A stretch of DNA of 64,000 bases from Candidatus Aminicenantes bacterium (GCA_027067555.1 JAMOVU010000070.1:63461-127460); one strand, 5' to 3'. Shown: positions 21,263-36,892, counted from the first letter of the stretch. Numbers and translations are program-made. The notes: generated from the sequence alone by a model not told the origin.

Positions 21263-24027
21263 TAAGAATCAAGCTCCCTTACGACAACAGCACATCTCGG
21301 GCAGAGTTCAGGATAATCTTTATCCTCCCCTATATGAAGAGAATAATTCCAGCATCTTGGGCATTTCTTAGCTTCAAATTTTTCAGCCTTTATCTCAATT
21401 TTATCATTCTTTTGAATTTCAACATCAGAAACAACAAGAATCTCTTTAACTATATCTTCATACTTTTTGACTATCAAATAATCTTTCTCTGGTAAGCCTA
21501 TAATAACTTTTGCTTCAAGAGAGTCTTTTATTATCTTATCTGTTCTTTTATTTTCAAGCTCTTTTAACACAAGTTCTCTTATTTCCATTATCTTCTCAAA
21601 TTCCTCTCTATCTACATCAGATAAAAAGGCTTTTCCTCCCTCCTCTATCTTTTCAAGATGGATTGAATCTTTTTTTCCTTTAAAAATGGGAAGATAAGAG
21701 TAAGCCTCTTCTGTAGTAAAAGGTAAGATAGGAGCCATAAGAATAAGTGTACCTTTTAAAATTTCAAACATAACATATTGAGCAGCTTTTCTCTTGGAAT
21801 CATTAGGAAGATTGCAATAAAGTACATCTTTTTTAATATTCAAATAAAAAGAGCTTAAATCAACAACAAAAAAATTATAAATAAGATGATAGATCTTGTA
21901 AAATTGAAAGTTTTCATAGGCCTTTATTATATTTTCCTTTAACTCATAGTATTTTTCAAGTATGTATTTATCCACTACAGAAAGAGCTTCTTTTCCTTCT
22001 TCCTTGTCGGGCTCATAATCATTGAGATTTCCAAGCATAAATCTCCATGTATTTCTCATCTTTTTATAAGCTTCGGTTAACCCAGCAAGAATTTTCTTCC
22101 CTAATTTCAAATCTTCCTGATAATTTACCATAGCAACCCAAAGCCTGATTATCTCAGCCCCTTTATCTTTAATAATTTCCTGAGGCTCAATAACATTTCC
22201 CATTGATTTTGACATTGCTCTTCCCTTTTCATCCAAAACCCATCCGTGAGTAATTACTGTTTTATAAGGGGAAGAATCTTTCGCAGAAACGCCGACCAAA
22301 AGGGAACTCTGAAACCATCCTCTGTACTGGTCATTTCCTTCAATATAAATATCCGCCGGATATCGGTGTCCCTCTCTGTATTCAAGAACCGAATGGCTTG
22401 CACCTGATTCAAACCAAACATCTAAGATATCTTCCTCTTTTTTTAAGTTTGTTGAACCACAGTGAGGGCACTTATAGCCCTCCGGTAAAAACTCCTTTTC
22501 ATCAAGTTCAAACCAGGAATTGGACCCCTTCTCTTTAAAAACTTCAGCAACCTTTAAAGCTATATCTTTATCTATTATGGTATTTCCACAGTCTTTACAA
22601 TAAAAAGCAGGTATAGGAACACCCCATGCACGCTGTCTTGAAATACACCAATCTGGCCTATTTTCCACCATGTTTTTTATTCTTTCCTCACCCCATTCTG
22701 GAAGCCATCTTACCTTAGTGATTTCTTCTTTAGCCTTATCCCTTAACTCACCCTTATCAAGAGAGATAAACCATTGCTCGGTTGCTCTGAAAATTATAGG
22801 GTTCTTACATCTCCAGCAATGGGGATAGGAATGCTCTATATCTTCGGATAAAATTAGCTTTCCCTCCTTTTTCAAATCTTCCACTATTAAAGGATTTGCT
22901 TCAAAAACATGAATACCTTTATATTTCTCAACAGTATTATCAAATTTTCCTTCATCATCAACAGGAGCATATATTTCAAGATCATATTTTAAACCAGTTA
23001 AATAGTCTTCCTCTCCATGTCCGGGAGCAGTATGGACACAACCGGTTCCCTGCTCAAGGGTAACATAGTCAGCAAGGACAAAGACAGAATCCTTATTATC
23101 AAAAATAGGATGCTCTGCTTTTAAACCTTCAAAAATCTCTCCTTTTACCCTTTCAAGCGTTTTGTATTCTTCCCATCCGAACTTTTCAGTAATAACAGGT
23201 ACAAGCCTTGAAGCAGCTATATAAAGCTCTCCATTATATTCAAAAACATCATACTCAAAATCAGGATGAAGAGCTACTGCAAGGTTTGCAGGAAGAGTCC
23301 AGGGTGTGGTTGTCCATATTATTACATAAGAAATTTTGCCTTTGTATTGAGGAAATTTTTCCTCAAAATTTTTAATCTTAAATCTTACATATACAGAAGG
23401 ACTTTTGTGATCATGATATTCAATCTCAGCCTCAGCAAGGGCGGTTTTACATGAAGCACACCAATAAATAGGTTTCTTTTTTCTGTAAACATTACCTTTT
23501 TCAATAAAGGAGGCAAAGTATTTAATAATATAATATTCATATTCTTTATCTATTGTAAGATAAGGATTGCCCCAATCACCGAAAACACCCAATCTTTTAA
23601 AATCTTCCCTTTGAATATTTATATATTTTCTTGCGTAATCTTCACAGGCCTTTCTTATCTCAATTTTCTTCATTCCCTTTTTCTTTTCCCCCAATTCTGT
23701 ATCAACTTTCTTTTCAATAGGAAGACCATGACAATCCCAACCGGGGACATAGGGAGCTCTGTAACCTCTCATACTTTTATATTTAATTATAAAATCCTTC
23801 AATATCTTATTTAAAGCATGACCTAAATGTATTCGACCATTTGCATATGGCGGTCCATCATGCAAAATAAAAAGAGGAGAATCCTTTCTCTCTTCAAGAA
23901 TCTTGTTGTAAATATCCATCTCTTCCCATTTTGCAAGAAATTCAGGCTCTCTCTGATTAAGCTTTGCTTTCATAGGAAACTCAGTTTTTGGTAGATTTAA
24001 AGTTTCAACCCATTTTCTATCACCCAT
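21262..24027 (-). CDS. ileS: Isoleucyl-tRNA synthetase
   Basis: HIGH motif (GRIHLGHALNKILKD), KMSKS motif (KMSKSMGN) and a C-terminal zinc knuckle (CPRCWNY...CPRCAVV). 921 aa. Confidence 0.95.
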   Translation of the reverse strand: MGDRKWVETLNLPKTEFPMKAKLNQREPEFLAKWEEMDIYNKILEERKDSPLFILHDGPPYANGRIHLGHALNKILKDFIIKYKSMRGYRAPYVPGWDCHGLPIEKKVDTELGEKKKGMKKIEIRKACEDYARKYINIQREDFKRLGVFGDWGNPYLTIDKEYEYYIIKYFASFIEKGNVYRKKKPIYWCASCKTALAEAEIEYHDHKSPSVYVRFKIKNFEEKFPQYKGKISYVIIWTTTPWTLPANLAVALHPDFEYDVFEYNGELYIAASRLVPVITEKFGWEEYKTLERVKGEIFEGLKAEHPIFDNKDSVFVLADYVTLEQGTGCVHTAPGHGEEDYLTGLKYDLEIYAPVDDEGKFDNTVEKYKGIHVFEANPLIVEDLKKEGKLILSEDIEHSYPHCWRCKNPIIFRATEQWFISLDKGELRDKAKEEITKVRWLPEWGEERIKNMVENRPDWCISRQRAWGVPIPAFYCKDCGNTIIDKDIALKVAEVFKEKGSNSWFELDEKEFLPEGYKCPHCGSTNLKKEEDILDVWFESGASHSVLEYREGHRYPADIYIEGNDQYRGWFQSSLLVGVSAKDSSPYKTVITHGWVLDEKGRAMSKSMGNVIEPQEIIKDKGAEIIRLWVAMVNYQEDLKLGKKILAGLTEAYKKMRNTWRFMLGNLNDYEPDKEEGKEALSVVDKYILEKYYELKENIIKAYENFQFYKIYHLIYNFFVVDLSSFYLNIKKDVLYCNLPNDSKRKAAQYVMFEILKGTLILMAPILPFTTEEAYSYLPIFKGKKDSIHLEKIEEGGKAFLSDVDREEFEKIMEIRELVLKELENKRTDKIIKDSLEAKVIIGLPEKDYLIVKKYEDIVKEILVVSDVEIQKNDKIEIKAEKFEAKKCPRCWNYSLHIGEDKDYPELCPRCAVVVRELDS

Positions 24028-24104: not shown

Positions 24105-25061
24105 TTATTTAACAGTTATTAATTCAATAAAAGAGTAAAGAAGTTTCTCATCAAACCCTTCTCTATGCTCCAACATAAATTTGGCAGCTTCAATGGGCTC
24201 TTTTGCTTTCGAATAAGACCTTGTAGTTGTTATTGCATCAAAAACATCAACGATTGTACCAATCCTTCCAAAAAGAGAGATCTGCCTACCTTTCAAACCC
24301 TGAGGATAACCAGTCCCATTGAATTTTTCATGATGCTGGCCAATAATAAGCATACTCTGTTCGGATACAAGCCCGCTTTGCTTTGCAAGCTCAACTCCGT
24401 ACTCAGGATGCTTTTTCATTTCCTCCCATTCCGCAGGAGTAAGTTTACCGGGTTTATTAATTATTTTTGGATCAACCATTGATTTTCCCAGATCATGCAA
24501 AAGCGCTCCCACTCCCAACTCTCGTAAGGTTTTATCATCAAATGCTCCTATCTTATTCCCTAAAGCCACTGCAAATGTACAAACATTTACCGAATGTGTA
24601 AATGTATAATAATCATGAGCTCTTATCTGAAGGAGGTTTACAAAAGCATCAGGTCCACTTAAAATAAAGTCAACCGTATGATTAACAACTTCCTTTGATC
24701 TCTTTACAACCTCTCCCCTTTTCGGATGCTCAAAAATATCTTCCACAACATTAACAGCAGCTTCGTAAAGATATGTAGCTTTTACACGCTGATCTACATT
24801 TGGATCTTTTAAAATTCCATCAAGGTTTTTCTCCATATATTCTCTGTATTTTTTCCTGTCTTCTTTTTTTATGTATAAAAACTTTACCCCGCTTGCTTTT
24901 AAATTTTCAATATCATCCGCTGTTATTATTATATTTTTATCTCTGTACAAAACAAGCTTATCCTTTACTTTCATATAGAGACTAAAATTTACTATTGAAT
25001 CAGGTCTGAATTTCTCAAGACTTATCGGCATATAGTACAACTCGTATCTCGGACCAGTCAT
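24105..25061 (-). CDS. HD-GYP domain protein (candidate cyclic-di-GMP phosphodiesterase) with an uncharacterised roughly 130-aa N-terminal domain
   Basis: Motifs HDLGK and HHEKFNGTGYPQGLKG (the HD plus GYP signature). Confidence 0.8.
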   Translation of the reverse strand: MTGPRYELYYMPISLEKFRPDSIVNFSLYMKVKDKLVLYRDKNIIITADDIENLKASGVKFLYIKKEDRKKYREYMEKNLDGILKDPNVDQRVKATYLYEAAVNVVEDIFEHPKRGEVVKRSKEVVNHTVDFILSGPDAFVNLLQIRAHDYYTFTHSVNVCTFAVALGNKIGAFDDKTLRELGVGALLHDLGKSMVDPKIINKPGKLTPAEWEEMKKHPEYGVELAKQSGLVSEQSMLIIGQHHEKFNGTGYPQGLKGRQISLFGRIGTIVDVFDAITTTRSYSKAKEPIEAAKFMLEHREGFDEKLLYSFIELITVK

Positions 25062-25213
25062 TATACATTTTACTATAATAAAAAGAGGGATTCAATACAA
25101 AAAATCATTTTAATAATAAAAATGTTTCATTTGTTCTCTTTTGGCTCTTCTAAATAATCATCAAACTTTTTTAAAAAGCCTCAGTATGATAGAATTAGCC
25201 CACTGGAGTTATT

Positions 25214-26713
25214 ATGAAACCAAAATTTCAAATTTTTGTACCACCTCAGGGATATGTTGCTCAAAGATGGGAAGAGGGAAGTTCCATGCCACCTCTCGGA
25301 ATTCTTTTCCTTGCAGCTGTTTTAGAAAAAGAAGGATATGAAATTGAAATAGTTCCCGCTGATATTTTACGACTAAGCTGGAATGATATTGCAAAAAAGA
25401 TTGATGATTTTAAACCTGATGTTGTCGGTATAACGACAACAACAGAAAACAGATTTGAAAGTTTCAAACTTGCAAGGATAGCCAAAGAGACAAATCCAAA
25501 GATAATAACTCTTTTAGGCGGCCCCCATATTTCAATGGCAAGAGAAGATACTATAAAATATAGAAAAGAGGTTGATATTGTTTCAATCGGTGAAGGAGAA
25601 AACACTATAAAAGAGTTAGCAAAAGCTCTGGAAACACAGGATTCCCTTTATAAAGTAAAAGGACTGATTTTCAGAGATAATAATGAAATAATATTTACTG
25701 GAGAAAGACCAAGGATAGAGGATTTAGACACACTACCCTTTCCCGCAAGACATTTAATTCCAATGGAAAAATACAATTTTTATGTTGAAACGAGAGATGG
25801 GAAAAAGAGAAAAGCTCAGAATATAATGACTTCAAGAGGATGCCCCTTTAACTGTTATTTTTGTGCAACACCTGTGAATTGGGGTAGAAGGATGAGAGGA
25901 CATAGTCCTGAAAGAGTTATAAAGGAAATTGAAATTTTAGTAGAAAAGTATGGAGCAGAGTTTATCTGGTTTTATGATGATACCTTAAACTATAATAAAA
26001 AGAGACTTCACAAAATAATGGATATGATAATAGAAAGAAAATTCAATATTAAATTTGCAAATGAATTCAGAATAGATGTAGTAGATAAACCGCTTTTGGA
26101 AAAAATGAAAGAGGCCGGACTTGAACAGGGTTTTTTTGGCATTGAAGCTGGTTCTCCACGAGTTAGAAAAAACATTATTAGAAAAAATTTTGATATTGAA
26201 AAGGCTTATCAATTTTTGGAATGGTCAAAAGAATTGGATTTTATTCCCGGGCCATTTTTTATCTTTTCCCATCACACAGAAACATGGGAAGAGGCACAGG
26301 AAACATTAAGAATAATAGAAAAGGTAAAAGATATAAACCCAAATGCAGATATTTCAGTTGCAATTCTTCATATTTATCCCGGAACCCCTCTTGAGTACAT
26401 AGCAAAAGAGGAGGGAATTTTGCCAAAGGATTTTTCCTGGTCAAAAGAGGAAGACATGAAAAGGGTGGAAACTCTCCCCGCTGCTCAGGGAGAAGTTCCA
26501 CTTTTTAAAGATAAACTCTCCTGGTGGCAAATTGCGAATTTGGTGTTCAGATGGTCAGCTGTAAGCAAAAAAAGAATATCAAAATCAAAGATAAAAAAGG
26601 CAATAAAAGATATAAAAAAGCCAAAAGATCTTTTTGTCTATGGAATTTTCTTTTTAGCTCTTTTAAAGTATAAAATAATAAATCTTTTCAAAAAGAAACA
26701 GAGTCAAAAATAA
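25214..26713 (+). CDS. B12-binding-domain radical SAM enzyme (class B rSAM) with a C-terminal hydrophobic anchor
   Basis: N-terminal cobalamin-binding-like Rossmann region (LGILFLAAVLEKEGYEIEIV...VVGITT). Radical-SAM cluster motif RGCPFNCYFC. The C-terminal segment LFVYGIFFLALLKYKIINLF is hydrophobic. Confidence 0.8.
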   Translation: MKPKFQIFVPPQGYVAQRWEEGSSMPPLGILFLAAVLEKEGYEIEIVPADILRLSWNDIAKKIDDFKPDVVGITTTTENRFESFKLARIAKETNPKIITLLGGPHISMAREDTIKYRKEVDIVSIGEGENTIKELAKALETQDSLYKVKGLIFRDNNEIIFTGERPRIEDLDTLPFPARHLIPMEKYNFYVETRDGKKRKAQNIMTSRGCPFNCYFCATPVNWGRRMRGHSPERVIKEIEILVEKYGAEFIWFYDDTLNYNKKRLHKIMDMIIERKFNIKFANEFRIDVVDKPLLEKMKEAGLEQGFFGIEAGSPRVRKNIIRKNFDIEKAYQFLEWSKELDFIPGPFFIFSHHTETWEEAQETLRIIEKVKDINPNADISVAILHIYPGTPLEYIAKEEGILPKDFSWSKEEDMKRVETLPAAQGEVPLFKDKLSWWQIANLVFRWSAVSKKRISKSKIKKAIKDIKKPKDLFVYGIFFLALLKYKIINLFKKKQSQK

Positions 26714-28697
26714 TAACAAAAGGGAAGGTTCTTAAATCTTTCCTACTCTTTAATTTAATCTTTAAATAATAATAATATTTATCTCCCTTTTTATACACTT
26801 TTGGAGAATTAACAATTAAAATTTTTTCACTTATCGATCTAAACAAAAACTTTTTATCTCCAAAAAACACATAAGTATCGAATATATTGGTTGCTCCTCC
26901 GATTTTTAAACTAATTTTTTTAAGCTTTGAATATGAAGAAAATAAAAGTTTAAACCCTTTTTCCCTGTTGTGAACAATAAAAAATCCTTTTCCATTGTAC
27001 AAGAGTCTTAAATCCTTACTCAAATTGTAAAAGACAATTCCTTTAACTCTCCTCAACTTTAAAGGATTTTTTGCCTGTGGATACGGGAAAAGTACCCTTG
27101 AAATAAGAAAAAACAAAACTACCACATAAAAGATTATATTAACAAATAACTCTTTCTTTTTTAAATAATAAAAAAGGAGAGCCCCTGCCATTATACCAAA
27201 AATCCAGATAATATTTGGTAAATAGAAAAGATTGTTCGCAGCTCCCTTTATAAAGGAAGGAAGATAATTTGGAAAATATATATTCATATTACTGAGATAT
27301 ATAAAAAGAGCCGAAGCTCTCTCCTTAACCCCCGATGTAGTTGGTTGGTATAAAAAAAGAGGGTTGAATAATAGAATGAGAAATATGCCCAAAGAAATTG
27401 TTCCCAAAAGATAAAATAGTTTTTTGTTTGCCCGGTTTTCTTTAAAAAATTCATAAAGAATAATAAAAACAATCCACAAGACAGGAACAAGAGGTCTTGC
27501 CGGCGGAGAATAAGCTCCTCTTGATGTTAAAAAGGCATAGTAAAGAGAATAGGGTAAAAAAATAGTAAGAAAAAGCAATAATAATTTTCTGTTTCTTTTT
27601 AAGATATTAAAAGACAAGAATAGAAGAAAAAAATAAGGGGCATATAGTAAGAGACCGTCCCTTTGATCAAGAAAATAATCAAAAAAACTTTCCACCCTTA
27701 CATTAAAAGGAATTGAAAATATTATTCGAATCCATTTTTTACTATCGATTCCCTCATACACAAGAGTGGGAGAAAAACTTCCATAAATTAATTTAAGATA
27801 AATTGAATGTAAAATAAAAGTAAAAAAAGAAGGAAGAGCAAAAAGCCATATTTTTCTGCTTTTTTTATAGGTAAGATAAAAGAGGATAAATCCCAGTTCT
27901 ACAATCAAAAATTTAGTGTGGAAAAATATAAGGACTGATATCAATATCCCACTTAATAAAATCTTTTCTTTTTCTAACAAAAGATATGCCGAAAAACTTA
28001 TCAAAAGGGCAAATAATTCTGGATAAAGATGAATAGAATAAAAAAAGATAGGAGAAGAAAAATAAAAAATAGGCAAAAGAACAAATAAAGCATGCGGTTT
28101 CTCTTTACTATAAAGTTTAAAGAAGATAAAAATAAAAGCTAATCCAAAAATAGAGACGTAAGACCTTAAGATAAAGGTAGAAAGAAAATAATTCCTGTAT
28201 GCTAAAGCTTTTATCAAAAGATAAGAAGGAATAAGAAAAACAGAAAGAGCCGGCGAGTGAAAAGGGTACCATCCTTTCTCTTTTCTTCCAAAGTGTGTGT
28301 GAGGAGAAAGTTTTACAGGATGAAAAATATCGTATGATCTCTTTTTATAATTATCATAAAGATCAATATCACCATCTTCCACCAAAGACTGTGCGATAAT
28401 AAGATAGTGAGGTTCATCCCCTCCTAAATAAGGAAATCTTTTTGCAAAAAGAAGAATAAATATAAAGTTTAAACAAAAAAAACCAATAAAAAAAATTTTC
28501 TTTTTCTTAACTATTAATTTTAAAAAATCATTAAACAAACCCACAAAAAATGAAAAATTTTCAAAAACAAAGGAAAAGAGAATCAAAATAAAAAGAGCCA
28601 GAAGTCTTTCAAGGCAATCCTCTCTGAAAAAATACAAAAAATGCAAAAAAGGAGTTAAAAAAACAAAAAAAAGAGACTTATACTTTAACCGTGCCAT
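26688..28697 (-). CDS. Large polytopic membrane protein, GT-C-like (putative glycosyltransferase), with a C-terminal soluble domain
   Basis: At least 12 predicted TM helices. The first loop carries an acidic motif GGDEPHY...EDGDIDLYDNY. About 170 aa of soluble C-terminal tail. The family assignment is tentative. Confidence 0.35.
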   Translation of the reverse strand: MARLKYKSLFFVFLTPFLHFLYFFREDCLERLLALFILILFSFVFENFSFFVGLFNDFLKLIVKKKKIFFIGFFCLNFIFILLFAKRFPYLGGDEPHYLIIAQSLVEDGDIDLYDNYKKRSYDIFHPVKLSPHTHFGRKEKGWYPFHSPALSVFLIPSYLLIKALAYRNYFLSTFILRSYVSIFGLAFIFIFFKLYSKEKPHALFVLLPIFYFSSPIFFYSIHLYPELFALLISFSAYLLLEKEKILLSGILISVLIFFHTKFLIVELGFILFYLTYKKSRKIWLFALPSFFTFILHSIYLKLIYGSFSPTLVYEGIDSKKWIRIIFSIPFNVRVESFFDYFLDQRDGLLLYAPYFFLLFLSFNILKRNRKLLLLFLTIFLPYSLYYAFLTSRGAYSPPARPLVPVLWIVFIILYEFFKENRANKKLFYLLGTISLGIFLILLFNPLFLYQPTTSGVKERASALFIYLSNMNIYFPNYLPSFIKGAANNLFYLPNIIWIFGIMAGALLFYYLKKKELFVNIIFYVVVLFFLISRVLFPYPQAKNPLKLRRVKGIVFYNLSKDLRLLYNGKGFFIVHNREKGFKLLFSSYSKLKKISLKIGGATNIFDTYVFFGDKKFLFRSISEKILIVNSPKVYKKGDKYYYYLKIKLKSRKDLRTFPFVIIFDSVSF

Positions 28698-31060
28698 CCT
28701 TCCTCATCAAAATAAATTTTGCCAGATTCAAAAATAGCAAATCCAATATTACTTAAAAACTTTTTAAAAGTCAGCTGACCTGAAATCCTTTCTTCTATCA
28801 AAAAAAGTCTTTTTTTATTATTCTCAAACCATTTATAATCAGAGGAATACTTTTTAATTAATTCGATATCATAAACTTTATCAAACTCACTTCTATAAAT
28901 ACCCGCAAAGGGATACCAGAATTTTTTAAGAAAAAATAGGAGATTCGCATTTTTCTTTTTACAATTAATATCACATTTCCTAAAAAAACCTACTAATCTT
29001 CTATCAATCTCAGATTTAAAGTTTTTAGGAAGAAAGAAAGAGAACTTTCTTAGTGTTCTTGGAGAAATATCCCAAAGAATACCGTATTTTGTATGAGCAA
29101 TGCTATTCCAGATTTTGAAAGGAGTTGCACCAAAAGTTAACTTTCTATATTCGAGATAAGCGAAAGGAGCCATTTTCTCATGACCGGGTCTCCTTCTTTT
29201 TCTAATTTTTACTCTTGAAACAATGGGATCAGTTAATCCCAATTTATCTACAATATAAACATTTTCCCCTGCATAAAAACCTAAAAAACCTATATTCTTG
29301 TATGCAATTTTTAATCTAATACCTGACTTTTCAGACAATCTTTTATAATCCTGTCCCATTGTTTTCCACATGAAAATAATATCCTCTTTGAAAAGATCCC
29401 CGATCTCTTCTAATTTTTTATTTTTATAATAAGCAAACCTTTCATCAGAAATACCTCCTTTATTGTAAAACCTACCTCTTTTTTGCACAGGCTTTATGTA
29501 AAGAGCAATAGCAAAAATAAGAATAGAAAGAGCGACTCCAATGGCTTTCCTAAAAGTGTTTTTTTCAAAAAGAAAATCAAAAGCACCTATACTTGAAGAG
29601 GATATCAAAAGAAAAGCGGGAAGAAGAAATCTTCCGTGCATAAAATCTCCTCCGCCGCGTACAACAAAAAAGCCATGAATAAAACCCGAAAAAAAGATTA
29701 ATAACCTTGCTTTAAAGGAGTAATTTTTCCTTGTAATAATCAAAGCAAGGACTCCCAATAAAAAAGCTACTAAAAAAAGACTTCCTTCAACTAAATCTTT
29801 TAAATAAAGGATTCCTTGAGAAAAATATGAGCCAGCTCCACTTTTTGTATAAAAAGGATTCGGGAAAAAGCTTGCAAAGTATCCCATCCTGAAAATTTGA
29901 TACCCCCCTAAAAAGAGGAAAACAGGAATCAAAAATTCAACTAAAATTTTTGTTTGTATCTGTTTTTTTATTAATTTATAAGAAAATATTAATAACAAAA
30001 GGATTAAAAAGACTCCAAAATCAGGCCTATTCAAAACCAAAAGAGAAAGCAATAATCCGAAAAGCAATGGCTTTTTAATAAATAAATTTTCAGAAATAAA
30101 ATAAGCGTAGAGAGAAAGTAAGAGAAAAGATAAAGAGGTTTCCAGGCCACTTGTTCCAAAATCAATAAAAGCACTCGAACCAATTAGCATAATTCCTGCA
30201 AAATTTAATTTAAATGATTTCTCTCCAAACCTTATTTTAAAAAAAAGAAAATACAAGGTAAGCAAAGAAAAAAGTAAAGCTGGTAAGATCGCAGCGCCTT
30301 TATAACTTACTCCCAACACCTTAACACCCGACACTACAAAAAACCAGAGAGCATGTGTAAACCCCTCAACCCTCTCTCCTATATTATACACCAGCCCGTG
30401 TCCAGAAAGAAAATTTCTTATTATTCTCAAGGTAATAAAGGCATCCTCAGAAATCCAGCTTCTTATAAAAATAGCATAAAAGCCTCCGGAAACAAAAAAT
30501 AGTGCCAACCACTTTTTCCAGCCTTCCCCGCTTTTAACATTTAAAAAAGAAAAAATTACAATGGAAAGAAAGATAAAGATTAAGATACTTTTATAAAAAA
30601 CGACAAAAGGAGAAATATAAAAAGAAGTTCTAATTAGCTCAACTTTATCAAGATATATCCACCCCTTTCTATCTCTGATTCTTACTCTCGGCTCCAATTC
30701 TACCGTTTCTCCTAATTTAACCCTCAAGATTACCTGTCCATCATTATCTGAAATTTTTATTGGTTTTTGTACTTTTATTTTCTTTCCCCTTTTATAAGCA
30801 ATCTCAAATATGTAAGTCCCCCCTTTTAAAGCATTTTTATAATGAAAAACAGCGTCATATTTTCCCGGTTCAACTGTTTTGTACACTCCATAAGCTAAAA
30901 TCTCCCCCTTAGAAGAGACATTCTTTTCTATTAAAACCTTATTGTGAATAAAATTAGAAAACATCCATCTCTTTTCCCCGCTATAATGAATAAAAAAACT
31001 AAGAAGTACAGTGGAAAGAACAATCAAGTACAGGCTAAGAAAGAAAAGTTTCTTTTTCAT
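28685..31060 (-). CDS. Polytopic membrane protein of the GT-C (ArnT/PMT_2-like) type, with an N-terminal secreted beta-rich domain and a C-terminal soluble domain
   Basis: Signal/TM, then a roughly 140-aa extracytoplasmic domain, then a GT-C first-loop-like motif SEDAFITLRIIRNFLSGHGLVYNIGERVEGFTHALWFF (compare DE-x-aromatic...R..N.L..G.G in ArnT/PMT families). At least 10 TM helices. A roughly 250-aa C-terminal domain follows. Confidence 0.45.
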   Translation of the reverse strand: MKKKLFFLSLYLIVLSTVLLSFFIHYSGEKRWMFSNFIHNKVLIEKNVSSKGEILAYGVYKTVEPGKYDAVFHYKNALKGGTYIFEIAYKRGKKIKVQKPIKISDNDGQVILRVKLGETVELEPRVRIRDRKGWIYLDKVELIRTSFYISPFVVFYKSILIFIFLSIVIFSFLNVKSGEGWKKWLALFFVSGGFYAIFIRSWISEDAFITLRIIRNFLSGHGLVYNIGERVEGFTHALWFFVVSGVKVLGVSYKGAAILPALLFSLLTLYFLFFKIRFGEKSFKLNFAGIMLIGSSAFIDFGTSGLETSLSFLLLSLYAYFISENLFIKKPLLFGLLLSLLVLNRPDFGVFLILLLLIFSYKLIKKQIQTKILVEFLIPVFLFLGGYQIFRMGYFASFFPNPFYTKSGAGSYFSQGILYLKDLVEGSLFLVAFLLGVLALIITRKNYSFKARLLIFFSGFIHGFFVVRGGGDFMHGRFLLPAFLLISSSSIGAFDFLFEKNTFRKAIGVALSILIFAIALYIKPVQKRGRFYNKGGISDERFAYYKNKKLEEIGDLFKEDIIFMWKTMGQDYKRLSEKSGIRLKIAYKNIGFLGFYAGENVYIVDKLGLTDPIVSRVKIRKRRRPGHEKMAPFAYLEYRKLTFGATPFKIWNSIAHTKYGILWDISPRTLRKFSFFLPKNFKSEIDRRLVGFFRKCDINCKKKNANLLFFLKKFWYPFAGIYRSEFDKVYDIELIKKYSSDYKWFENNKKRLFLIEERISGQLTFKKFLSNIGFAIFESGKIYFDEEGWHG

Positions 31061-31159: not shown

Positions 31160-31795
31160 ATGGAAGTAAAAAAGATATATCTTCTAAGAAAGCTTATTTT
31201 GGAAAGAATTCACACCCGGAGGGATATTGATTTTGTAAAAATAGATGAGAATTTAACAAAAGAGATAGAAGATTACTTTTCTCAAGCAGAAGAAAAGGAA
31301 GAAGTTCTTTTATCCCTAAGAAAAGAGCAACAAATGGACCCCAATGCTTCATTAAAATATTTTAGAGCGATAGAAAGAATTGAAATAAGAAGGAAAGTTC
31401 TTCAACTACTCTTAGCCATAGCTTTAAACAAAGTCCCAAATAAAAAAGGGACTTTGCTTTTCAAACAACTTTATGATTCTGTAATGGATATGGTAAAATT
31501 ATTTGAAGAAAAAGATGTATTTGAAGGGAGTAAAAGGGAGGTGCTTAAATCAGAATTCCTTACCACCTATATAGATGATTTTGAATTTTTCTATAAATTT
31601 AATAAAGATGAAATAGAGAACCATTTAAAACAGGCAAAAGAAAATAAAGATTTTATCCTTATATTTGAAGCTCTTTTTCTCATGGCTCTTTTTTGGTTTA
31701 CCATAAGGGAGGGGAATATTGAGAAGATAAGAAAAAGTGATTTATTTATCTATTTGTTATCTAAAAAATTAAAGGAAGAATATCAAAAGGTTTAG
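31160..31795 (+). CDS. Hypothetical cytoplasmic protein (211 aa, Glu/Lys-rich), no recognisable motif
   Basis: Clean ORF sitting in its own intergenic context with AT-rich upstream sequence. Confidence 0.4.
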   Translation: MEVKKIYLLRKLILERIHTRRDIDFVKIDENLTKEIEDYFSQAEEKEEVLLSLRKEQQMDPNASLKYFRAIERIEIRRKVLQLLLAIALNKVPNKKGTLLFKQLYDSVMDMVKLFEEKDVFEGSKREVLKSEFLTTYIDDFEFFYKFNKDEIENHLKQAKENKDFILIFEALFLMALFWFTIREGNIEKIRKSDLFIYLLSKKLKEEYQKV

Positions 31796-31799
31796 GAAC

Positions 31800-34688
31800 T
31801 CAGGAGTTTAAAATCCTTATTCTACTTAAAGCCACTTTAGCAAGTTGTGTACGAGGATTTGCTTTAATTGATTCTCTATAACCTCTCAAAGCCTCCTTTT
31901 TATCCCCAATTCTTTCCATAATAACCCCATAAAGGAAAGAATCATAAAAAAGCCACAATCTTGTCCTAAAGGAAGTTTTCTTTTCTTTTTCAAGAAAGTC
32001 CATAGTTTCTTTAGCCAATTTAATAGCTTCTTCCAGTTCACCTCTTTTTAAAAGTACATAGGCATAGGACATAGCAGCAAATTTTCTTTTATAGGGTGAG
32101 TTAATATACAAATCCTCAACATAAAAACTCGCCAAATCCACCAAATCTTTTCCATTTTTAATCCCACTTAAACCTAAAATATCATAAGTAAAGGCACTTC
32201 TTGAAAAGAATAATCTATACTCTGCAATAGTAAAAGATGATGGATCTCTTCCCAAAAGTTCTGATAAAATACTAAGAGATGATAAATACTCCCCACTAAA
32301 CAATTTAACAACCCCTCTCATAATTTTTTTCTGTCCATCTTTAACATTCATTTTTTTTGCAATTTCTTGAGCATTGAAAAACTTTCCTTCCTGAAGATTA
32401 ATATAATAACTAAAAAGATTTTTTCCTATCACATGGGTTAACCCCCAAAAATCTCCTATATCCTTATATTTTTTCTCACTCAAATCCAGAGCTTTTTTTA
32501 AATTCCCTTTTAAAAACTCAATCTCGCAAAGTTTCTGAATAGCATCAGAGTTTAAAGGATAGAAAAATACAGATTTTTGAAAGCTTTTCTCTGCATTTTT
32601 ATAATCCATCAACTTTAATTCAACCAAACCTTTTAAATAATAAAAAGCTGCTCTTAAATACGGGTTTTTAACATCTTTTTTTATAACTTCCTTTATTATC
32701 TTATAAGCGCTTTCATAATCCTTATCCTTTAAAAAAGCATAATAAAAATCATTTACAAGAAATAAAACTTTCTTTAAAGTAGGTTTAAAATCCTGATATA
32801 CCCTCTTTTTCTTCTCATTAAAAACAGTTAAGATAACCTTCTTTCCACTTATTTGAAGAATCATGCTTTCGCCCGTCTTAATACTTAGAAATTTGAATTG
32901 ATTAATCCCTATGGCTCCAATAAAAGAAGTATGACTTGGAAAAAAATAGATGAAATTATTGAAGAGAGTTTCTCTAGAAGGGTTTAATTGGGGGATTATG
33001 GTAATTTTATATGCAGCGGAAGTATCTCCTCTCTTCAAACTAAAAGGAATAAAATAGGACAAATGAGAGAAAATATTATTTTTCCCTAAAATCAAAAGCT
33101 TTGGAAATGAATTTTTTATTTTAAGTAATCTATATGAAAAAATCATTCCCGGACTATATAATTCATAAGCTCTGCCATTTTCACTAAATAAAAAAAATGC
33201 TGATGGATACATACCCAAAAAATGCTTTAAATTTGCTCCAAAAAATTTACCTTTTCCTAAATCAAACTCTTTAAACTCTCCAAAATAAAAATTCTTGGCA
33301 AACTCATAAGAATAATAATTCATTAAATTGTTAATGCTAAATACTTTATTCCCACTATTATCAAGAAAAACAATTTTAGCATTCCTTTTATTGGAAAGGA
33401 TACTTTCCCTAATCGGGAAAAATTTATAATCTTTATGATTTAGAAAAACCAAAATTTCACTCTTAGAGCTTCCTATCTTATTTAATCTCTCTAGCCTTTC
33501 AATATTTTTTTCATTTAATTTAACAGCTCTGAAAACATTGTAAGGGGAAAAATCCTTTCTAAAAACTTTTATCCCAAAAGTATTGTACCCTTCTAAAAGA
33601 GGCCCCTTGTAAGATAAATAAGAAACTGTTTTTTTGTTAATCACAACAAAATAAAAAGATAATAAAAATAAAATAAAGCTTATAAAAACTCCCACTCTTC
33701 TTAAAACTTTTTTATTCTGGCAAATAGAATTGATAAGTCTATCTTTAATAGTTAGTTTCTCTTTAAGTAAAAATTTTTCTAATTCATTTATATTCTTAAA
33801 TCTATTTCTATAATCAACAGCCATAGCTTTCTTTATTGCAAAGCTTAAAAAATCGGGAAAAGTTCCGATTTCCGAACAATTATCAAAATAATTTACACTC
33901 ACTTTCTTGTAAAGAAGCTCTACAGTTGAAGTGTGCTCTTCAAAAGGGAATTTTCCTGTTAATACTCTGAAAAGCATAACCCCAAGCTGGTATACATCAG
34001 AGTAAAAACCCATCTTTTCTCCAATTACCTGCTCGGGTGTTATGTAATACGGAGTTCCTGTTATTTCTCCTATAGAAGAAGTTTTTGTCTCATCTTCAAG
34101 ATCTTTGGAAAGACCAAAATCAACTATCTTTACCTTTTTATTCTTGGTAATAAGTATATTGGAAGGTTTAAGGTCTCTATGGATAATATTTTTCTCATGC
34201 AGAGCTTTCACCCCTTTTAAAATCTCGAAAAATATAGGTCTAAATTCATCCCACTTTAACTTTTTCTTTTTTAGCAAATAAGATTTCAAGCTTTCCCCTT
34301 CAATGTACTCCATTACATTAAAATAAATATCATTCCAGTTTTCAAGAGAAAATATTTTTACAATCCTTGGGTCACTTATTTCCCGGGAAATTCTAACCTC
34401 TCTTTTTATCCTATAAAGCTTTCGTGAATTAGAGGTAACCATGGGATTTATAAATTTTAGAGCAACAGTTTGACTTAAGAATCTATCATAGGCCTTATAG
34501 ACAAAGCCCACTCCGCCTTCCCCTACTTTTTCTATTATTTCGTATCTATCATTAACCAATTCCCCTTTTTTTAAATTTGATAACAAAAGGAGATAAGCGG
34601 TTATATTCACATCTGAAAACTCAGATTCTTTGTTTTTTGATAAATCAACAGATTCTGTTTCGTTCATTGTATTATATCTTATATCCAT
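31800..34688 (-). CDS. Hanks-type Ser/Thr protein kinase with single TM, large extracytoplasmic region and C-terminal TPR repeats
   Basis: Kinase subdomains are present: G-loop VGEGGVGFVYKA, VAIK-like VALKF, catalytic loop HRDLKPSNILI, DFG as DFGLS, and APE-like TPYYITPEQ. A TM segment lies at about aa 335-357. The C-terminal third has TPR-like AxxYxxAG repeats. Confidence 0.8.
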   Translation of the reverse strand: MDIRYNTMNETESVDLSKNKESEFSDVNITAYLLLLSNLKKGELVNDRYEIIEKVGEGGVGFVYKAYDRFLSQTVALKFINPMVTSNSRKLYRIKREVRISREISDPRIVKIFSLENWNDIYFNVMEYIEGESLKSYLLKKKKLKWDEFRPIFFEILKGVKALHEKNIIHRDLKPSNILITKNKKVKIVDFGLSKDLEDETKTSSIGEITGTPYYITPEQVIGEKMGFYSDVYQLGVMLFRVLTGKFPFEEHTSTVELLYKKVSVNYFDNCSEIGTFPDFLSFAIKKAMAVDYRNRFKNINELEKFLLKEKLTIKDRLINSICQNKKVLRRVGVFISFILFLLSFYFVVINKKTVSYLSYKGPLLEGYNTFGIKVFRKDFSPYNVFRAVKLNEKNIERLERLNKIGSSKSEILVFLNHKDYKFFPIRESILSNKRNAKIVFLDNSGNKVFSINNLMNYYSYEFAKNFYFGEFKEFDLGKGKFFGANLKHFLGMYPSAFFLFSENGRAYELYSPGMIFSYRLLKIKNSFPKLLILGKNNIFSHLSYFIPFSLKRGDTSAAYKITIIPQLNPSRETLFNNFIYFFPSHTSFIGAIGINQFKFLSIKTGESMILQISGKKVILTVFNEKKKRVYQDFKPTLKKVLFLVNDFYYAFLKDKDYESAYKIIKEVIKKDVKNPYLRAAFYYLKGLVELKLMDYKNAEKSFQKSVFFYPLNSDAIQKLCEIEFLKGNLKKALDLSEKKYKDIGDFWGLTHVIGKNLFSYYINLQEGKFFNAQEIAKKMNVKDGQKKIMRGVVKLFSGEYLSSLSILSELLGRDPSSFTIAEYRLFFSRSAFTYDILGLSGIKNGKDLVDLASFYVEDLYINSPYKRKFAAMSYAYVLLKRGELEEAIKLAKETMDFLEKEKKTSFRTRLWLFYDSFLYGVIMERIGDKKEALRGYRESIKANPRTQLAKVALSRIRILNS

Positions 34689-34777
34689 TAAAAAATTTTC
34701 TCAAGAGTAATTTTTTTTAACAGATCAAACATAAAGGGAATATTGACTGGTATTTCTTTTTAATATATACTTTTTCA

Positions 34778-36892
34778 ATGAAAAAAAGACTTATTATTAT
34801 TCTACTTTTTGCGTTAAGTTTAAGTTTATTTTCTATCCCATCTTACTCCAAAACAAAAAAAACAAAACTATCCACCAAAGAACTAATAAAAAGATTACCA
34901 AAAAAGTACAAAGATTGGCTGGATCTTGTTTATTACATTATTACCCCGATTGAAAAAAAGGTCTTTTTACAGTTAACCAACAACAGAGATAGAGATGCTT
35001 TTATTAAATTATTCTGGCAACATAGAGATCCCACACCTGGAACCCCCGAAAATGAATTCAAAGAGGAACATATAAGAAGATTTAAATATGCAAACAAACA
35101 CTTTAAAACAACACGTCCAGGCTGGATGACAGATATGGGGAAAATTTACATAATTTTAGGACCTCCAAATACTCACAATAATTATGATAATGAATTCGGA
35201 ATTTACCCTTTGAAAATATGGGGCTATTATGGAGACAAAAAGTTAGGCCTCCCGGCTTATTTTAGAATAATTTTCTTTAAAAGAAACGGAATAGGTGAAT
35301 ATGTTTTGTATGATCCAGCCTTTGATGGTCCCGCTTCTATTTTAAGAGATACAGAAGGAGTTGACATAACAGATATAAATTCCATCTATAGAAAATTAAA
35401 GGAGATAGCCCCCTCCATAGCAAAATCAGTTTTATCCCTGATTCCGGGAGAAGAATCCTTTTTTTCTATGCCAACCACAAGAGGTACTGTTCTCTTGAGC
35501 CAAATTTTTGAACTTCCTAAAAAGAGAGTAAAAGTTAATTATGCAAGACAATTCCTGGATTTTAAAGGGATTGTGAAAGTAGATTATGCCATGAATTATG
35601 TTGAAAATGATTTTCTCTATACCCTTAATTATGACCCTTCAACAGGATTAAATTTTCTTCACTTTTCCATAAAACCCCATAGAATATCATTAGCTTATTC
35701 TTCTGAAAAAGATAAATATTATTTTGCCTTAAAGCTTGATGTGAGCTTAAAAAAAGGAGATTTAATTGTATATCATTATTCAAAGAGATATTCTTTTTAT
35801 TTCACAGAAGATGAAGTGAACACAAGACTCAAACCATCGGGGTTAGCAATAAATGACATGTTTCCAATTATACCGGGAGATTATCAATTAATCGTCCTCT
35901 TGCAAAATTCTGTAAAGAGAGAATTTACATACTCAAAGAATGAAATTAAGGTCCCCCTCTCACCTAAATCACCTCATTTAGTAGGTCCTATCCCGACATA
36001 TAAAGTTGATAGAGCAGCTCTCGATGTGGTCTACAGACCCTTTAAATTCGGCTATTTTCTTTTGAATATTGAGCCTAAAAAGTTCTTTTCTCTTGCGGAT
36101 AAAATCAAGATATTCGTAGGAGCAAATAATTGTGAAAAATTAAAAAATGGAAAGATAGAGGTAATAGTTAAGAATAGACCGGGATATCCAAAGTTCTCAA
36201 AAACTTTTGAAGTACAAACCCCAAAAGATAAGAATACTTTTTATAAAAGCTTTTTACTTTCAGGGGAGCTTCCTTCTGCTGTGTTCGATGTAACCGCAAG
36301 ATTATATAGTGCCAATATTCCCATAGATACAAAAGAAAGCAATTTTACGATTTCTCCAATAAGAAATGTATCTCACCCAATGGAAGCTTTCAAAGTAATG
36401 GACAAGAGAAATAAAGCTTTACACTATTACAGAATTGCAAATGAATACGAAAATCTTGGAAATCTGAAGAAAGCAGAATATTATTATGAACTTGGCTTTT
36501 CAAAGATAAAAGATTTCTACGAAGGAATAATTCGTTATACAAAACTTTTAATTAAACAAAATAAATATGAAAAAGCCCTTAGTGTTGTGGAAAGTTTAAA
36601 AGGAGTCAAAAAATTTGACTTTGAATACTATGCTCTCAAAGGAGAAGCTCAGTTCTACCTGAATGATTTTGAAAATGCCCTGAACAATTTGCTTAAAGCC
36701 AACAAAATCTATGATAGTGATGTCCATGTGATAAATCTTTTGGGGTTAACCTTCCTCAGAATGGAAAATTTTGATCAGGCACTGAAAGCATTTAAGGCAT
36801 CTCTCTCAATAAATGAAGATCAACAGGAGATAAAAAATCTTATTAAAAGAATAAAATCCATTCAGAAAAAGAAAGCTGATAAGAAGAATTAA
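34778..36892 (+). CDS. Secreted GWxTD-domain protein with C-terminal TPR repeats
   Basis: Signal peptide MKKRLIIILLFALSLSLFSIPSYS. Core motif RPGWMTDMGKIYIILGPP matches the GWxTD signature. The C-terminus has TPR-like repeats (ANEYENLGNLKKAEYYY...). Confidence 0.55.
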   Translation: MKKRLIIILLFALSLSLFSIPSYSKTKKTKLSTKELIKRLPKKYKDWLDLVYYIITPIEKKVFLQLTNNRDRDAFIKLFWQHRDPTPGTPENEFKEEHIRRFKYANKHFKTTRPGWMTDMGKIYIILGPPNTHNNYDNEFGIYPLKIWGYYGDKKLGLPAYFRIIFFKRNGIGEYVLYDPAFDGPASILRDTEGVDITDINSIYRKLKEIAPSIAKSVLSLIPGEESFFSMPTTRGTVLLSQIFELPKKRVKVNYARQFLDFKGIVKVDYAMNYVENDFLYTLNYDPSTGLNFLHFSIKPHRISLAYSSEKDKYYFALKLDVSLKKGDLIVYHYSKRYSFYFTEDEVNTRLKPSGLAINDMFPIIPGDYQLIVLLQNSVKREFTYSKNEIKVPLSPKSPHLVGPIPTYKVDRAALDVVYRPFKFGYFLLNIEPKKFFSLADKIKIFVGANNCEKLKNGKIEVIVKNRPGYPKFSKTFEVQTPKDKNTFYKSFLLSGELPSAVFDVTARLYSANIPIDTKESNFTISPIRNVSHPMEAFKVMDKRNKALHYYRIANEYENLGNLKKAEYYYELGFSKIKDFYEGIIRYTKLLIKQNKYEKALSVVESLKGVKKFDFEYYALKGEAQFYLNDFENALNNLLKANKIYDSDVHVINLLGLTFLRMENFDQALKAFKASLSINEDQQEIKNLIKRIKSIQKKKADKKN

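Follow-up and report, generated by a model that had tools for sequence, protein, structure and literature searches.

Two predicted GT-C glycosyltransferases and an orphan class-B-type radical SAM enzyme as neighbors in a Candidatus Aminicenantes genome

In a genome of Candidatus Aminicenantes, a radical SAM gene (called rSAM here) lies next to two genes for large membrane proteins, M669 and M791, and the question is whether the three belong together. The sequence-only reading of this DNA had proposed a dedicated pathway, in which rSAM and the two membrane proteins, taken to be GT-C glycosyltransferases, build or modify a membrane-bound glycoconjugate or lipid, e.g. a C-methylated sugar or polyprenyl carrier. 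In the present work, we examine this proposal by establishing the domains, folds, conserved catalytic residues and gene-neighborhood statistics of the locus. The whole stretch of DNA analyzed, 64,000 nucleotides, is called the window. We consider it reasonably probable, for the explanation as a whole, that the locus contains two functionally independent units: an operon of the GT-C genes M791 and M669, which would serve pentofuranose transfer, and an unlinked rSAM.

The reading frames and the convergent, 3′-overlapping layout reported earlier were reproduced exactly (Table 1). From the ORF coordinates, rSAM and M669 are convergent and their 3′ ends overlap by 26 nt (26688–26713). M791 and M669 run in the same direction with a 13-nt overlap (28685–28697), and they therefore constitute an operon-like pair.

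Table 1. Features of the locus, with positions counted from the first nucleotide of the window.
Feature	Position	Strand	Remarks
HD-GYP-type phosphodiesterase gene	24105-25061	-	318 aa; Pfam HD_5 PF13487, E 2.3e-27; HD, E 4.7e-17
HD-GYP/rSAM intergenic region	25062-25213	.	152 nt, between divergent genes
rSAM gene	25214-26713	+	499 aa; class-B-type radical SAM, apparently an orphan
rSAM N-terminal B12-binding-type Rossmann domain	25280-25618	+	residues 23-135; PF02310
rSAM CxxxCxxC [4Fe-4S] motif	25841-25864	+	C210, C214, C217; from the translation
rSAM C-terminal hydrophobic/basic tail	26627-26689	+	residues ~472-492; hydropathy, alignment of ortholog C-termini
M669 gene	26688-28697	-	669 aa; predicted GT-C-fold glycosyltransferase, second in the M791-M669 pair
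M669 C-terminal beta-sandwich, CBM-like	26691-27065	-	residues ~545-669
M669 G93-D94-E95-P96 motif	28410-28421	-	start of first extracytoplasmic helix; candidate catalytic acid pair
M791 gene	28685-31060	-	791 aa; predicted AftB-family GT-C glycosyltransferase, first in the pair
M791 C-terminal periplasmic alpha/beta domain	28721-29443	-	residues ~540-780; HMM alignment, AF2 model
M791 catalytic loop W202-I-S-E-D206-A-F-I-T-L-R212	30425-30457	-	HMM alignment to 9dlf
M791 N-terminal extracytoplasmic beta-sandwich, CBM-like	30623-30970	-	residues 31-146
p211	31160-31795	+	211-aa ORF, divergent from M791; no Pfam or NCBIfam match

The radical SAM enzyme

rSAM matches the Pfam families B12-binding (PF02310, E = 1.7e-24) and Radical_SAM (PF04055, E = 3.4e-21). 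It has both the N-terminal B12-binding-type domain and the CxxxCxxC core that mark class B, and the three cysteines of the core are invariant among 15 aligned orthologs. Profile matches to QCMT (9ccb, E = 3e-20), TokK, CysS, OxsB and TsrM confirm the class. The best PDB matches are AprD4 (top), QCMT and TokK. On the basis of its sequence, rSAM is thus a class-B-type radical SAM enzyme, predicted to be of the cobalamin type; AprD4, which falls in the same similarity cluster, does not bind B12 (PMC12931638).

The sequence-only reading had described a class-B enzyme with a C-terminal hydrophobic anchor. The architecture and the conserved tail both stand, but the tail does not look like a canonical transmembrane (TM) helix. 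The hydrophobic stretch (residues ~473–491) comprises just about 12–13 apolar residues, followed by Lys/Arg, and is kept in the orthologs; being so short, it resembles a tail or in-plane anchor. Its conservation suggests that rSAM works at the membrane, an association that we infer from the tail.

At the level of subfamilies, rSAM falls far below the cut-offs of all 28 NCBIfam models that it matched. The best score is to BchE (175 vs 481 bits), and others are ApyD (RiPP, 172), P-methyltransferases (143–151), HpnJ (149), TIGR04072 (124) and HpnR (115). By NCBIfam, the enzyme is hence not an equivalog of the characterized subfamilies (BchE, HpnJ, HpnR, PhpK, ApyD, BzaD, etc.). It shares the B12-binding-type domain and the CxxxCxxC core with BchE, HpnJ, PhpK, TokK, QCMT and TsrM, but differs from them in having its own conserved C-terminal domain (LPAAQGxVPLFKxxLSWWQIA) and the hydrophobic tail, and in lacking a pathway context. 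Orthologs with 50–95% identity occur in at least 80 species, where the recurrent neighbors are smc, an SSF symporter, PBP1A, tmk, degP and dapF. rSAM is an orphan enzyme, lineage-wide in Aminicenantes, and its gene appears to be monocistronic.

One specific role to be considered is that of a membrane-lipid modifier, i.e. a methylase, cyclase or C–C coupling enzyme with fatty-acyl, isoprenoid or tetraether-type lipids as substrates. Such a function would account for both the lineage-wide conservation and the hydrophobic tail. The C-terminal domain and the hydrophobic/basic tail are kept in all orthologs, the similarity to HpnJ, to TIGR04072 (“lipid biosynthesis B12-binding/rSAM”) and to HpnR is moderate, and class B contains many lipid-modifying members (PMC13459092). 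However, the scores to BchE, ApyD and the P-methyltransferases given above are equal or higher, the best PDB matches listed above point elsewhere, and the rSAM orthologs have no conserved lipid-biosynthesis neighbor. A literature search found no link between Aminicenantes and a lipid-modifying enzyme of this kind. We regard this role as rather doubtful; it is compatible with the two-unit explanation, to which it would add a specific task for rSAM.

The two GT-C proteins

M791 is homologous to AftB, in both sequence and fold, across the TM and periplasmic domains. In the HMM alignment to 9dlf, D206, R345 and R477 correspond to D62, R221 and R372 of AftB. All three of these AftB residues are essential, the two arginines stabilizing the phosphate (PMC12041299). 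Their M791 counterparts are invariant in 24 orthologs, as are S204, E205 and A207 next to D206. In the second HMM domain, GLTDP..RPGHEK is aligned with GLANP..RIGHDK of AftB, and PF26371 (AftB_C) is present in M791 homologs. M791 is thus, as judged from these alignments, an AftB-family GT-C glycosyltransferase with predicted activity.

The differences from mycobacterial AftB (the Rv3805c family, a terminal beta-(1->2)-arabinofuranosyltransferase; PDB 9dlf/9dlh) are considerable. The identity is only 21%, and the first Asp of the D-D motif is a Glu (E205) in M791. In addition, M791 has a CBM-like N-terminal beta-sandwich that in the AF2 model sits behind a signal-anchor helix and that AftB does not have. 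The host, moreover, is an anaerobic lineage with no known arabinogalactan. Against the AftB equivalog NF041481, M791 scores 107 bits vs a cut-off of 1050, which makes it a homolog and not an equivalog, so that the linkage and acceptor of AftB cannot be assumed. With the E-D motif and this low score, the sugar and linkage specificity may be other than those of AftB.

M669 is a GT-C-fold protein and predicted glycosyltransferase of a large, uncharacterized family with an invariant GDEP motif. It is polytopic, as expected for the GT-C fold with its 7–13 TM helices, and the acidic pair D94/E95 is located at the predicted tip of the first extracytoplasmic helix. This predicted helix (residues 95–108) comes right after the TM helix 66–87, with GDEP at its N-terminus. 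The motif shows no variation at G93, D94 and P96 in the alignment (A2), where E95 reaches at least 90% conservation, and G-D-E-P is invariant in 24 distant family members.

The family comprises ca 5000 sequence clusters, and no Pfam or CAZy-style model was found for it. A search with 24 members gave no Pfam match at E ≤ 1, and M669 does not belong by sequence to a curated GT-C family (PMT, PMT_2, Glyco_transf_22, STT3, etc.); among 24 distant relatives, PF02366 was touched weakly by two. NF047440, the family of Leptospira LA_3751/LA_3752, is the sole curated sequence family touched, by nine of 24 members (best E 1.5e-8) and by M669 itself at E = 1.3e-3, or 17.7 vs the cut-off of 200 bits. This Leptospira family is itself only a putative glycosyltransferase family. 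The closest fold match of M669 is a Dol-P-Man mannosyltransferase. Compared with the GT-C(A) enzymes ALG12/ALG9 (GT22), ArnT (GT83) and PMT (GT39), M669 has no Pfam match to Glyco_transf_22, PMT_2 or PMT, carries a C-terminal beta-sandwich domain, and is bacterial.

The GT-C hallmarks proposed earlier for the two proteins can now be judged. For M669, the polytopic topology, the acidic first-loop motif (GDEP) and the C-terminal soluble domain are all borne out, and by sequence it lies outside the PMT_2/GT39/GT83-type families. M791 likewise has a polytopic topology, the acidic motif S204-E205-D206 in the first loop, the C-terminal soluble domain and the N-terminal beta-sandwich. By their scores, the two proteins fall into neither YfhO nor O-antigen ligase, the examples of non-GT families named in advance as evidence against the assignment.

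A pentofuranose donor pathway in related genomes

The donor pathway was sought in the window and at the loci of M791 orthologs. No homolog of UbiA, DUF362, SDR or sulfatase is encoded within the 64-kb window. A gene for a UbiA-type polyprenyl-phosphate phosphoribosyltransferase (PPPRS), which would serve the synthesis of a decaprenyl/polyprenyl-P-arabinofuranose donor and which is missing from the window, lies beside M791 orthologs in at least six related loci. The AftB-like gene abuts UbiA and DUF362 genes, with or without SDR, in L086, L088, L089, L090, L097 and L106, and likewise in the more distantly related L118 and L124. With 309 bits vs a cut-off of 234, the UbiA protein of L086 scores as an NCBIfam equivalog of decaprenyl-phosphate phosphoribosyltransferase. 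The recurrent PPPRS, DUF362 and SDR genes point to lipid-linked pentofuranose glycosylation in Aminicenantes, and the most likely place of M791 and M669 is in an arabinan-like (pentofuranose) pathway for cell-envelope sugars.

Another option is that M669 uses a polyprenyl-phosphate hexose donor in the manner of PMT, ArnT or ALG12, e.g. as a protein or glycan mannosyltransferase independent of M791, the pairing then being loose clustering in a glycan locus. M669-like genes do occur without a nearby AftB-like or UbiA gene, e.g. as two paralogs among GT2/GT4 genes in L163, and M669 may for this reason use another lipid-linked donor. On the other hand, an M669-like gene directly adjoins the M791 ortholog, with overlapping or tightly spaced ORFs, in nine of the 21 loci that have 2 kb or more of downstream sequence. 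Moreover, a long-form M669-like gene is co-transcribed with the UbiA/DUF362/SDR module, with gaps of 2–33 nt, and M669 is by sequence outside the Pfam families of GT22, GT39 and GT83. A hexose donor is therefore unlikely.

The preferred scheme for the pair is that of pentofuranose transfer. The donor would be a polyprenyl-phosphate-linked ribofuranose or arabinofuranose made by a PPPRS encoded elsewhere in the genome, and M791 and M669 would transfer the pentofuranose to a cell-envelope glycan at the outer face of the cytoplasmic membrane. D206 of M791 would act as the nucleophile or base, with R345 and R477 stabilizing the phosphate as in AftB, and the extra N-terminal CBM-like module probably holds the glycan acceptor. 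We infer the donor sugar, the acceptor and the joint action of the two proteins. Such a system would be akin to mycobacterial arabinan capping or to the enterobacterial three-component pentofuranose systems.

The latter consist of a PPPRS, a flippase and a GT-C of family GT136, as in Citrobacter youngae O1/O2. A UbiA-like phosphoribosyltransferase supplies polyprenyl-P-Ribf, which epimerases, where present, turn into further donors, and the CBM-bearing periplasmic GT-C transfers the pentofuranose (PMC11127046). Of the three components, the window holds the GT-Cs alone, while the relatives have the PPPRS and one or more GT-Cs. In keeping with this logic, the relatives carry a PPPRS, an SDR and GT-C(s) with CBM-like domains. 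As differences, the GT-Cs, one AftB-like and one of the unnamed GDEP group, are from other sequence families and are two instead of one, DUF362 stands in the relatives’ loci in place of the expected epimerase or oxidase, and neither a flippase (MATE or SMR) nor a phosphatase domain was recognized in an unsystematic look at the loci.

A DprE1-like gene was not seen at the examined loci. It is possible, and we propose this only tentatively, that Aminicenantes, a lineage of Acidobacteriota that is anaerobic and uncultured, builds an arabinan- or ribofuranan-like extracytoplasmic glycan by means of UbiA, DUF362, SDR, the AftB-like GT-C and the GDEP GT-C family. DUF362 would then be an oxygen-independent stand-in for the FAD oxidase DprE1 in the conversion of polyprenyl-P-ribose into polyprenyl-P-arabinose, and M791 and M669 would be the transferases.

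rSAM and its neighbors

The link between rSAM and the GT-C genes was examined from both sides. Of 80 species-level loci centered on rSAM orthologs (50–95% identical), only those of the two closest relatives, L004 and L005 (95% and 86% rSAM identity), have a homolog of M791 or M669 within ±10 kb; none was found at the 62 other loci that have 3 kb or more of downstream sequence. Conversely, an rSAM ortholog is absent from all 20 M791-ortholog (AftB-like) loci whose flank extends for at least 5 kb. In the complete chromosome OY969696.1, the rSAM ortholog is ca 1.77 Mb away from an M669-like gene. The proximity is confined to one narrow, genus-level clade of Aminicenantes, and even in the 86% relative M669 is missing from between rSAM and M791. 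Furthermore, the convergent layout with its 26-nt overlap means that rSAM and the GT-C genes are not co-transcribed, and a shared promoter is impossible.

The sequence-only reading had made its proposal hinge on conservation of the adjacency in related genomes, and it is here that it fails: neither conserved adjacency nor co-transcription or shared regulation, as a dedicated pathway calls for, was found. rSAM adjoins the GT-C genes here and in L004 and L005, its conserved tail would fit a membrane-bound substrate, and in the distant contig L118 another B12-rSAM (29% identity) lies within a glycan cluster whose co-directional genes include UbiA, DUF362 and an AftB-like GT-C, which tells that such gene combinations can exist. 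But the L118 enzyme is not orthologous to rSAM, whose usual neighbors are housekeeping genes, and with the adjacency missing at 78 of 80 and 20 of 20 loci and the genes convergent, a dedicated pathway is highly improbable. rSAM is a chance neighbor of the glycosyltransferases, without demonstrable link. In the two-unit explanation it would be a separate, monocistronic unit, placed at the membrane by its tail. Non-conserved synteny does leave room for a functional link specific to this clade.

The gene on the other side of rSAM has the HD domain and the GYP signature of HD-GYP phosphodiesterases, with ‘LLHDLGK’ and ‘HHEKFNGTGYPQGL’ in the translation (pattern HD...HHExxxGxGYP). The divergent arrangement and the gap of about 150 nt noted earlier were found again, but the pair is kept only in L004, the relative with 95% rSAM identity. 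The intergenic region has no match to any Rfam family, and its 37 promoter-like matches are not above the expectation from shuffled sequence (30 ± 5.5). The HD-GYP gene is a mere neighbor, outside the glycosyltransferase unit. At the other end of the locus, p211 is conserved beside M791 only among the closest relatives; its copies in L004 and L087 show 92% identity, and it is missing next to more distant M791 orthologs.

Gene layout and the radical SAM–glycosyltransferase adjacency

A six-frame ORF list of the window reproduced exactly the coordinates reported earlier for rSAM, M669, M791 and the HD gene, which are given in the table. The radical SAM gene (rSAM) is convergent with M669, the second gene of a pair encoding polytopic membrane proteins, and overlaps it by 26 nt. 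The first gene of the pair, M791, is co-directional with M669, and the 13-nt overlap between the two is an operon signature. The base composition of the window is uniform (~30% GC), all three proteins have their nearest homologs in MAGs of Candidatus Aminicenantes or Acidobacteriota, and proteins 100% identical to M669 and M791 are found on one NCBI/JGI contig of 154 kb. Rfam models gave no riboswitch or RNA match anywhere in the window, with no cobalamin or c-di-GMP riboswitch between the HD-GYP-type gene and rSAM, and a promoter and terminator scan did not rise above the shuffled background.

Features of the window and of related loci
Feature	Location	Strand	Description
lgt	window 19996-20796	-	lipoprotein maturation
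lspA	window 20774-21262	-	lipoprotein maturation
ileS	window 21262-24027	-	clustered with lgt and lspA (19996-24027), overlapping ends
HD gene	window 24105-25061	-	HD-GYP-type; 152 nt upstream of rSAM, divergent
rSAM	window 25214-26713	+	499 aa
M669	window 26688-28697	-	669 aa
M791	window 28685-31060	-	791 aa
p211	window 31160-31795	+	211 aa, divergent from M791
Envelope/signalling run	window 31800-40344		the four genes that follow
Ser/Thr kinase	window 31800-34688	-	962 aa, C-terminal TPRs
GWxTD-domain TPR protein	window 34778-36892	+	
BatB-like protein	window 36939-38600	+	VWA + TPR
BatD protein	window 38569-40344	+	
Gap between rSAM and M791 homolog	L005:11495-12249		755 bp
SDR, UbiA, DUF362 module	L086:2562-7686	-	in this order, sometimes followed by a long-form M669-like gene; beside AftB-like gene
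UbiA/DUF362 module, distant lineage	L118:7125-9081		beside AftB-like gene
UbiA/DUF362 module, distant lineage	L124:1872-3831		beside AftB-like gene
Glycan cluster	L118:5358-21342	+	metagenome contig, co-directional

Among the flanking genes, p211 encodes a single hydrophobic segment, at the C-terminus, and matches nothing in Pfam or NCBIfam. Beside M791 it is conserved at 92% in L004 and L087, and it was not found beside more distant M791 orthologs. The BatB-like and BatD genes look like a Bat-like (aerotolerance-type) operon.

The sequence-only reading had proposed that the rSAM and the two membrane proteins are functionally coupled, and had tied this beforehand to conservation of the adjacency in related genomes. 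The adjacency is not conserved (2 of 80 rSAM loci and 0 of 20 M791 loci), and the proposal falls. The first number comes from a search, with all neighbour proteins of the window, of 80 loci (L004-L083). Each locus stands for one GTDB species and consists of an rSAM ortholog of 50-95% identity and as much as 10 kb of sequence to either side of it. An M791 homolog was found only in L004 (95% rSAM identity), where the synteny lspA-ileS-HD-rSAM-M669-M791-p211-STK is complete, and in L005 (86%), where M669 is missing and only an ORF-free gap separates rSAM from the M791 homolog; this gap holds no ORF of at least 100 aa and no detectable M669 remnant. M669 has thus been gained or lost even inside the narrow clade that retains the rSAM-M791 synteny. 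Counting only the 64 rSAM loci with at least 3 kb downstream, neither GT-C gene occurs in the other 62.

The reverse comparison used 79 loci centred on M791 relatives, 34 of them orthologs at 38% identity or more. None of the 34 has an rSAM ortholog nearby, and this includes all 20 whose flank reaches 5 kb or more. OY969696.1, a complete chromosome, carries its rSAM ortholog at ~2.06 Mb, far from an M669-like gene at 0.286 Mb. The adjacency is a local synteny of one narrow clade.

The commonest context of rSAM is instead smc, rSAM and an SSF (sodium:solute) symporter, in this order, the three being co-directional in ~28-30 of the 80 species. By ORF clustering, the recurrent neighbours are SMC (44 loci), the SSF symporter (39), DUF6600/FecR (34), PBP1A (32), an HDAC-like protein (32), Tmk (27), DegP (24) and DapF (16). 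A search of the nearest-neighbour clusters for RiPP-type or other operon partners returned as recurrent only smc upstream and the symporter downstream.

A joint pathway of rSAM and GT-C enzymes for a C-methylated lipid-linked glycan, which if real would have been new biosynthetic logic, is accordingly rejected as a gene-order coincidence. The idea as such is not absurd, as one distant contig (L118) has a different B12-binding rSAM, 29% identical, inside a co-directional UbiA/DUF362/AftB-like cluster, but this is a single case with a non-orthologous rSAM. The L118 cluster comprises NDP-sugar epimerases/dehydratases, UbiA, DUF362, GT2, an AftB-like GT-C, GT4 and an AsnB-like gene, together with two SAM methyltransferases, a 590-aa protein, the B12-binding rSAM (525 aa) and another GT4.

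The two GT-C proteins

The assignment of both membrane proteins to the GT-C class was right, for M791 by homology to AftB, the mycobacterial GT-C arabinofuranosyltransferase, and for M669 by its fold and a GDEP motif. M791 matches the AftB NCBIfam model with E 6e-31 and 107 bits, compared to a cutoff of 1050, and a 24-sequence M791 profile matches the AftB structure 9dlf with E 2.2e-46. In the latter alignment, W-I-S-E-D-A-F-I-T-L-R of M791 stands opposite W-I-A-D-D-G-L-I-V-L-R of AftB, NRPDF opposite VRPEL, GGGDFMHGRFLLP opposite QGGDFMHGRVLLT, and, at the C-terminal end, GLTDP...RPGHEK opposite GLANP...RIGHDK. In AftB, D62 is catalytic and R221 and R372 are essential (PMC12041299). By residue counting they correspond to D206, R345 and R477 of M791, all three of which are invariant in 24 orthologs. 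Within the AftB family, M791 is a new member from outside Actinobacteria, with an extended domain set; in the literature we found nothing specific linking Aminicenantes and arabinofuranosyltransferases.

M791 would bind a polyprenyl-P-pentofuranose via R345 and R477. D206 would act as a base or, in a retaining reaction like that proposed for AftB, as the nucleophile. The glycan acceptor would be held at the outer face of the cytoplasmic membrane by the N-terminal module, a beta-sandwich resembling a carbohydrate-binding module (CBM), and the C-terminal cap.

M669 has no Pfam match, and its profile gave nothing significant against PDB sequences; it was therefore assigned by fold comparison. Its first extracytoplasmic helix opens with G93-D94-E95-P96, a motif that is invariant even among relatives of ~20% identity, and residues ~545-669 form a CBM-like beta-sandwich. 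The family is unnamed and clearly GT-C, with 5033 cluster representatives (50% identity) at E <= 1e-3 and 1055 at E <= 1e-30. It touches only NF047440, a putative Leptospira GT, in 9 of 24 members (best E 1.5e-8), and marginally PF02366 (PMT), in 2 of 24 distant relatives. M669 and its relatives (P0361-P0503) have no Pfam model and share an invariant G-D-E-P ... D-G-D signature, and they seem to form a GT-C family that has not been described before.

M669 and M791 are not recent paralogs, BLASTP giving no similarity between them. With hhalign a weak match is obtained (probability 32%), which pairs R393/R401 of M669 with R468/R477 of M791. M669 may carry out a second transfer onto the same glycan as M791, using D94/E95. 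Its donor could differ from the pentofuranose, because two M669-like paralogs in L163 are found among GT2/GT4 genes with neither an AftB-like nor a UbiA gene. Members of the family are often multi-copy, those of L163 being both of 794 aa.

Gene neighbourhoods in relatives and proposed pentofuranose transfer

Of the 21 loci that extend 2 kb or more downstream, 9 have an M669-like gene directly adjoining the M791 ortholog. Short-form genes (36-78% identity; L084, L087, L107, L108, L110) are co-directional as in the window, and long-form genes (~800 aa, 31-34% identity; L086, L088, L090, L095, L099, L100) are convergent to the AftB-like gene, i.e. the M791 homolog. In three of these loci, L086, L088 and L090, the long form is the first gene of an operon that continues with UbiA and SDR and, in L086 and L090, also includes DUF362; the intergenic gaps in L086 are 2-33 nt. 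L099 and L100 are truncated after DUF362/UbiA, and L095 has none of UbiA, DUF362 and SDR. Directly beside the AftB-like gene, a UbiA + DUF362 (+ SDR) module occurs in L086, L088, L089, L090, L097 and L106, and likewise in two more distant lineages, L118 and L124. The L086 UbiA scores above the equivalog cutoffs of two NCBIfam models for decaprenyl-phosphate phosphoribosyltransferase (309 bits against 234, and 229 against 207). The module loci showed no DprE1-like FAD oxidase.

A sulfatase-family membrane protein also recurs, in 7 of 20 loci, as a neighbour of M791 orthologs. In a second subgroup (L085, L096, L098, L103, L112, L113) this protein (PF00884, ~600 aa, of the LtaS/EptA-like phospho-transferase type) lies upstream, and downstream of the M791 ortholog there is often a conserved protein of 337 aa in place of M669 or UbiA.

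The UbiA + SDR/DUF362 + GT-C gene set of the relatives corresponds in its architecture to lipid-linked pentofuranose glycosylation. Kelly et al. 2024 (PMC11127046) describe three-component systems with the same logic, leading from a UbiA-type polyprenyl-phosphate phosphoribosyltransferase to a CBM-bearing GT-C, and mycobacterial arabinan synthesis follows it as well. The UbiA-type enzyme would make polyprenyl-P-ribose(-5-P), redox enzymes may epimerise this product, and periplasmic GT-Cs with CBMs would transfer the pentofuranose. DUF362 may replace DprE1 in an oxygen-independent manner, because it occupies the position expected for the oxidase/epimerase.

For M791 and M669, the analysis shows the folds, the conservation of catalytic residues, the operon structure and the statistics of the gene neighbourhoods. 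The main gap in the pentofuranose argument is that the window shows no donor genes: tblastn with the UbiA, DUF362, SDR, sulfatase, GT2, GT4 and HAD proteins of related loci found none there, and the donor genes would thus lie elsewhere in this genome. A tentative and somewhat doubtful reading is that the Aminicenantes have an arabinan/ribofuranan-type glycan pathway that includes a new GT-C family and in which DUF362 takes the place of DprE1 under anaerobic conditions. As a whole, the system is of a known kind.

The cell walls of mycobacteria provide the best-known case of AftB-type glycosylation dependent on polyprenyl-phosphate-pentofuranose, and the pathway is a drug target in them. An uncultured anaerobic phylum seems to use this glycosylation widely, in partnership with a large GT-C family for which no curated model exists and with DUF362, a possible stand-in for DprE1 that would need neither oxygen nor FAD. 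Beside the failed rSAM-GT-C pathway, this result is more modest but useful.

The radical SAM protein

The class-B typing of the rSAM is supported by a B12-binding domain at residues 23-135 (Pfam, E 1.7e-24), a Radical_SAM core at residues 206-366 (E 3.4e-21) and the CxxxCxxC cysteines C210, C214 and C217, invariant in 15 orthologs. It matches 28 class-B-type NCBIfam families (BchE 175 bits, ApyD 172, P-methyltransferases 143-151, HpnJ 149, TIGR04072 124, HpnR 115), and since every score is far below its cutoff, no equivalog can be assigned. Its profile matches in the PDB only AprD4 (rSAM core only), QCMT (9ccb), TokK, CysS, OxsB and TsrM, with no Tes-like structure among them. AprD4-like proteins, which fall in the same similarity space, do not bind cobalamin (PMC12931638), and the cobalamin dependence of the rSAM is therefore only inferred.

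The orthologs have in common a distinctive C-terminal domain (LPAAQGxVPLFKxxLSWWQIA...) and end in ~12 hydrophobic residues followed by basic ones, which fits better with a membrane-associating tail than with a full TM helix. The rSAM is probably an independent, membrane-associated enzyme. That it modifies lipids is a reasonable guess but an unlikely one. Our literature search gave nothing specific connecting Aminicenantes with B12-rSAMs or with brGDGT/tetraether/Mss enzymes. As a well-conserved, lineage-wide orphan enzyme it is worth separate study.

The orthologs are almost only from Aminicenantes, apart from many TPA 'binchicken'/SRP MAG records that bear the title 'uncultured Clostridia/Eubacteriales bacterium' (L004, L010, L014, L020 etc.), several of which share the same neighbourhoods. 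The taxonomy labels of these records look unreliable; L004, for example, is fully syntenic with the window, at 95% identity.
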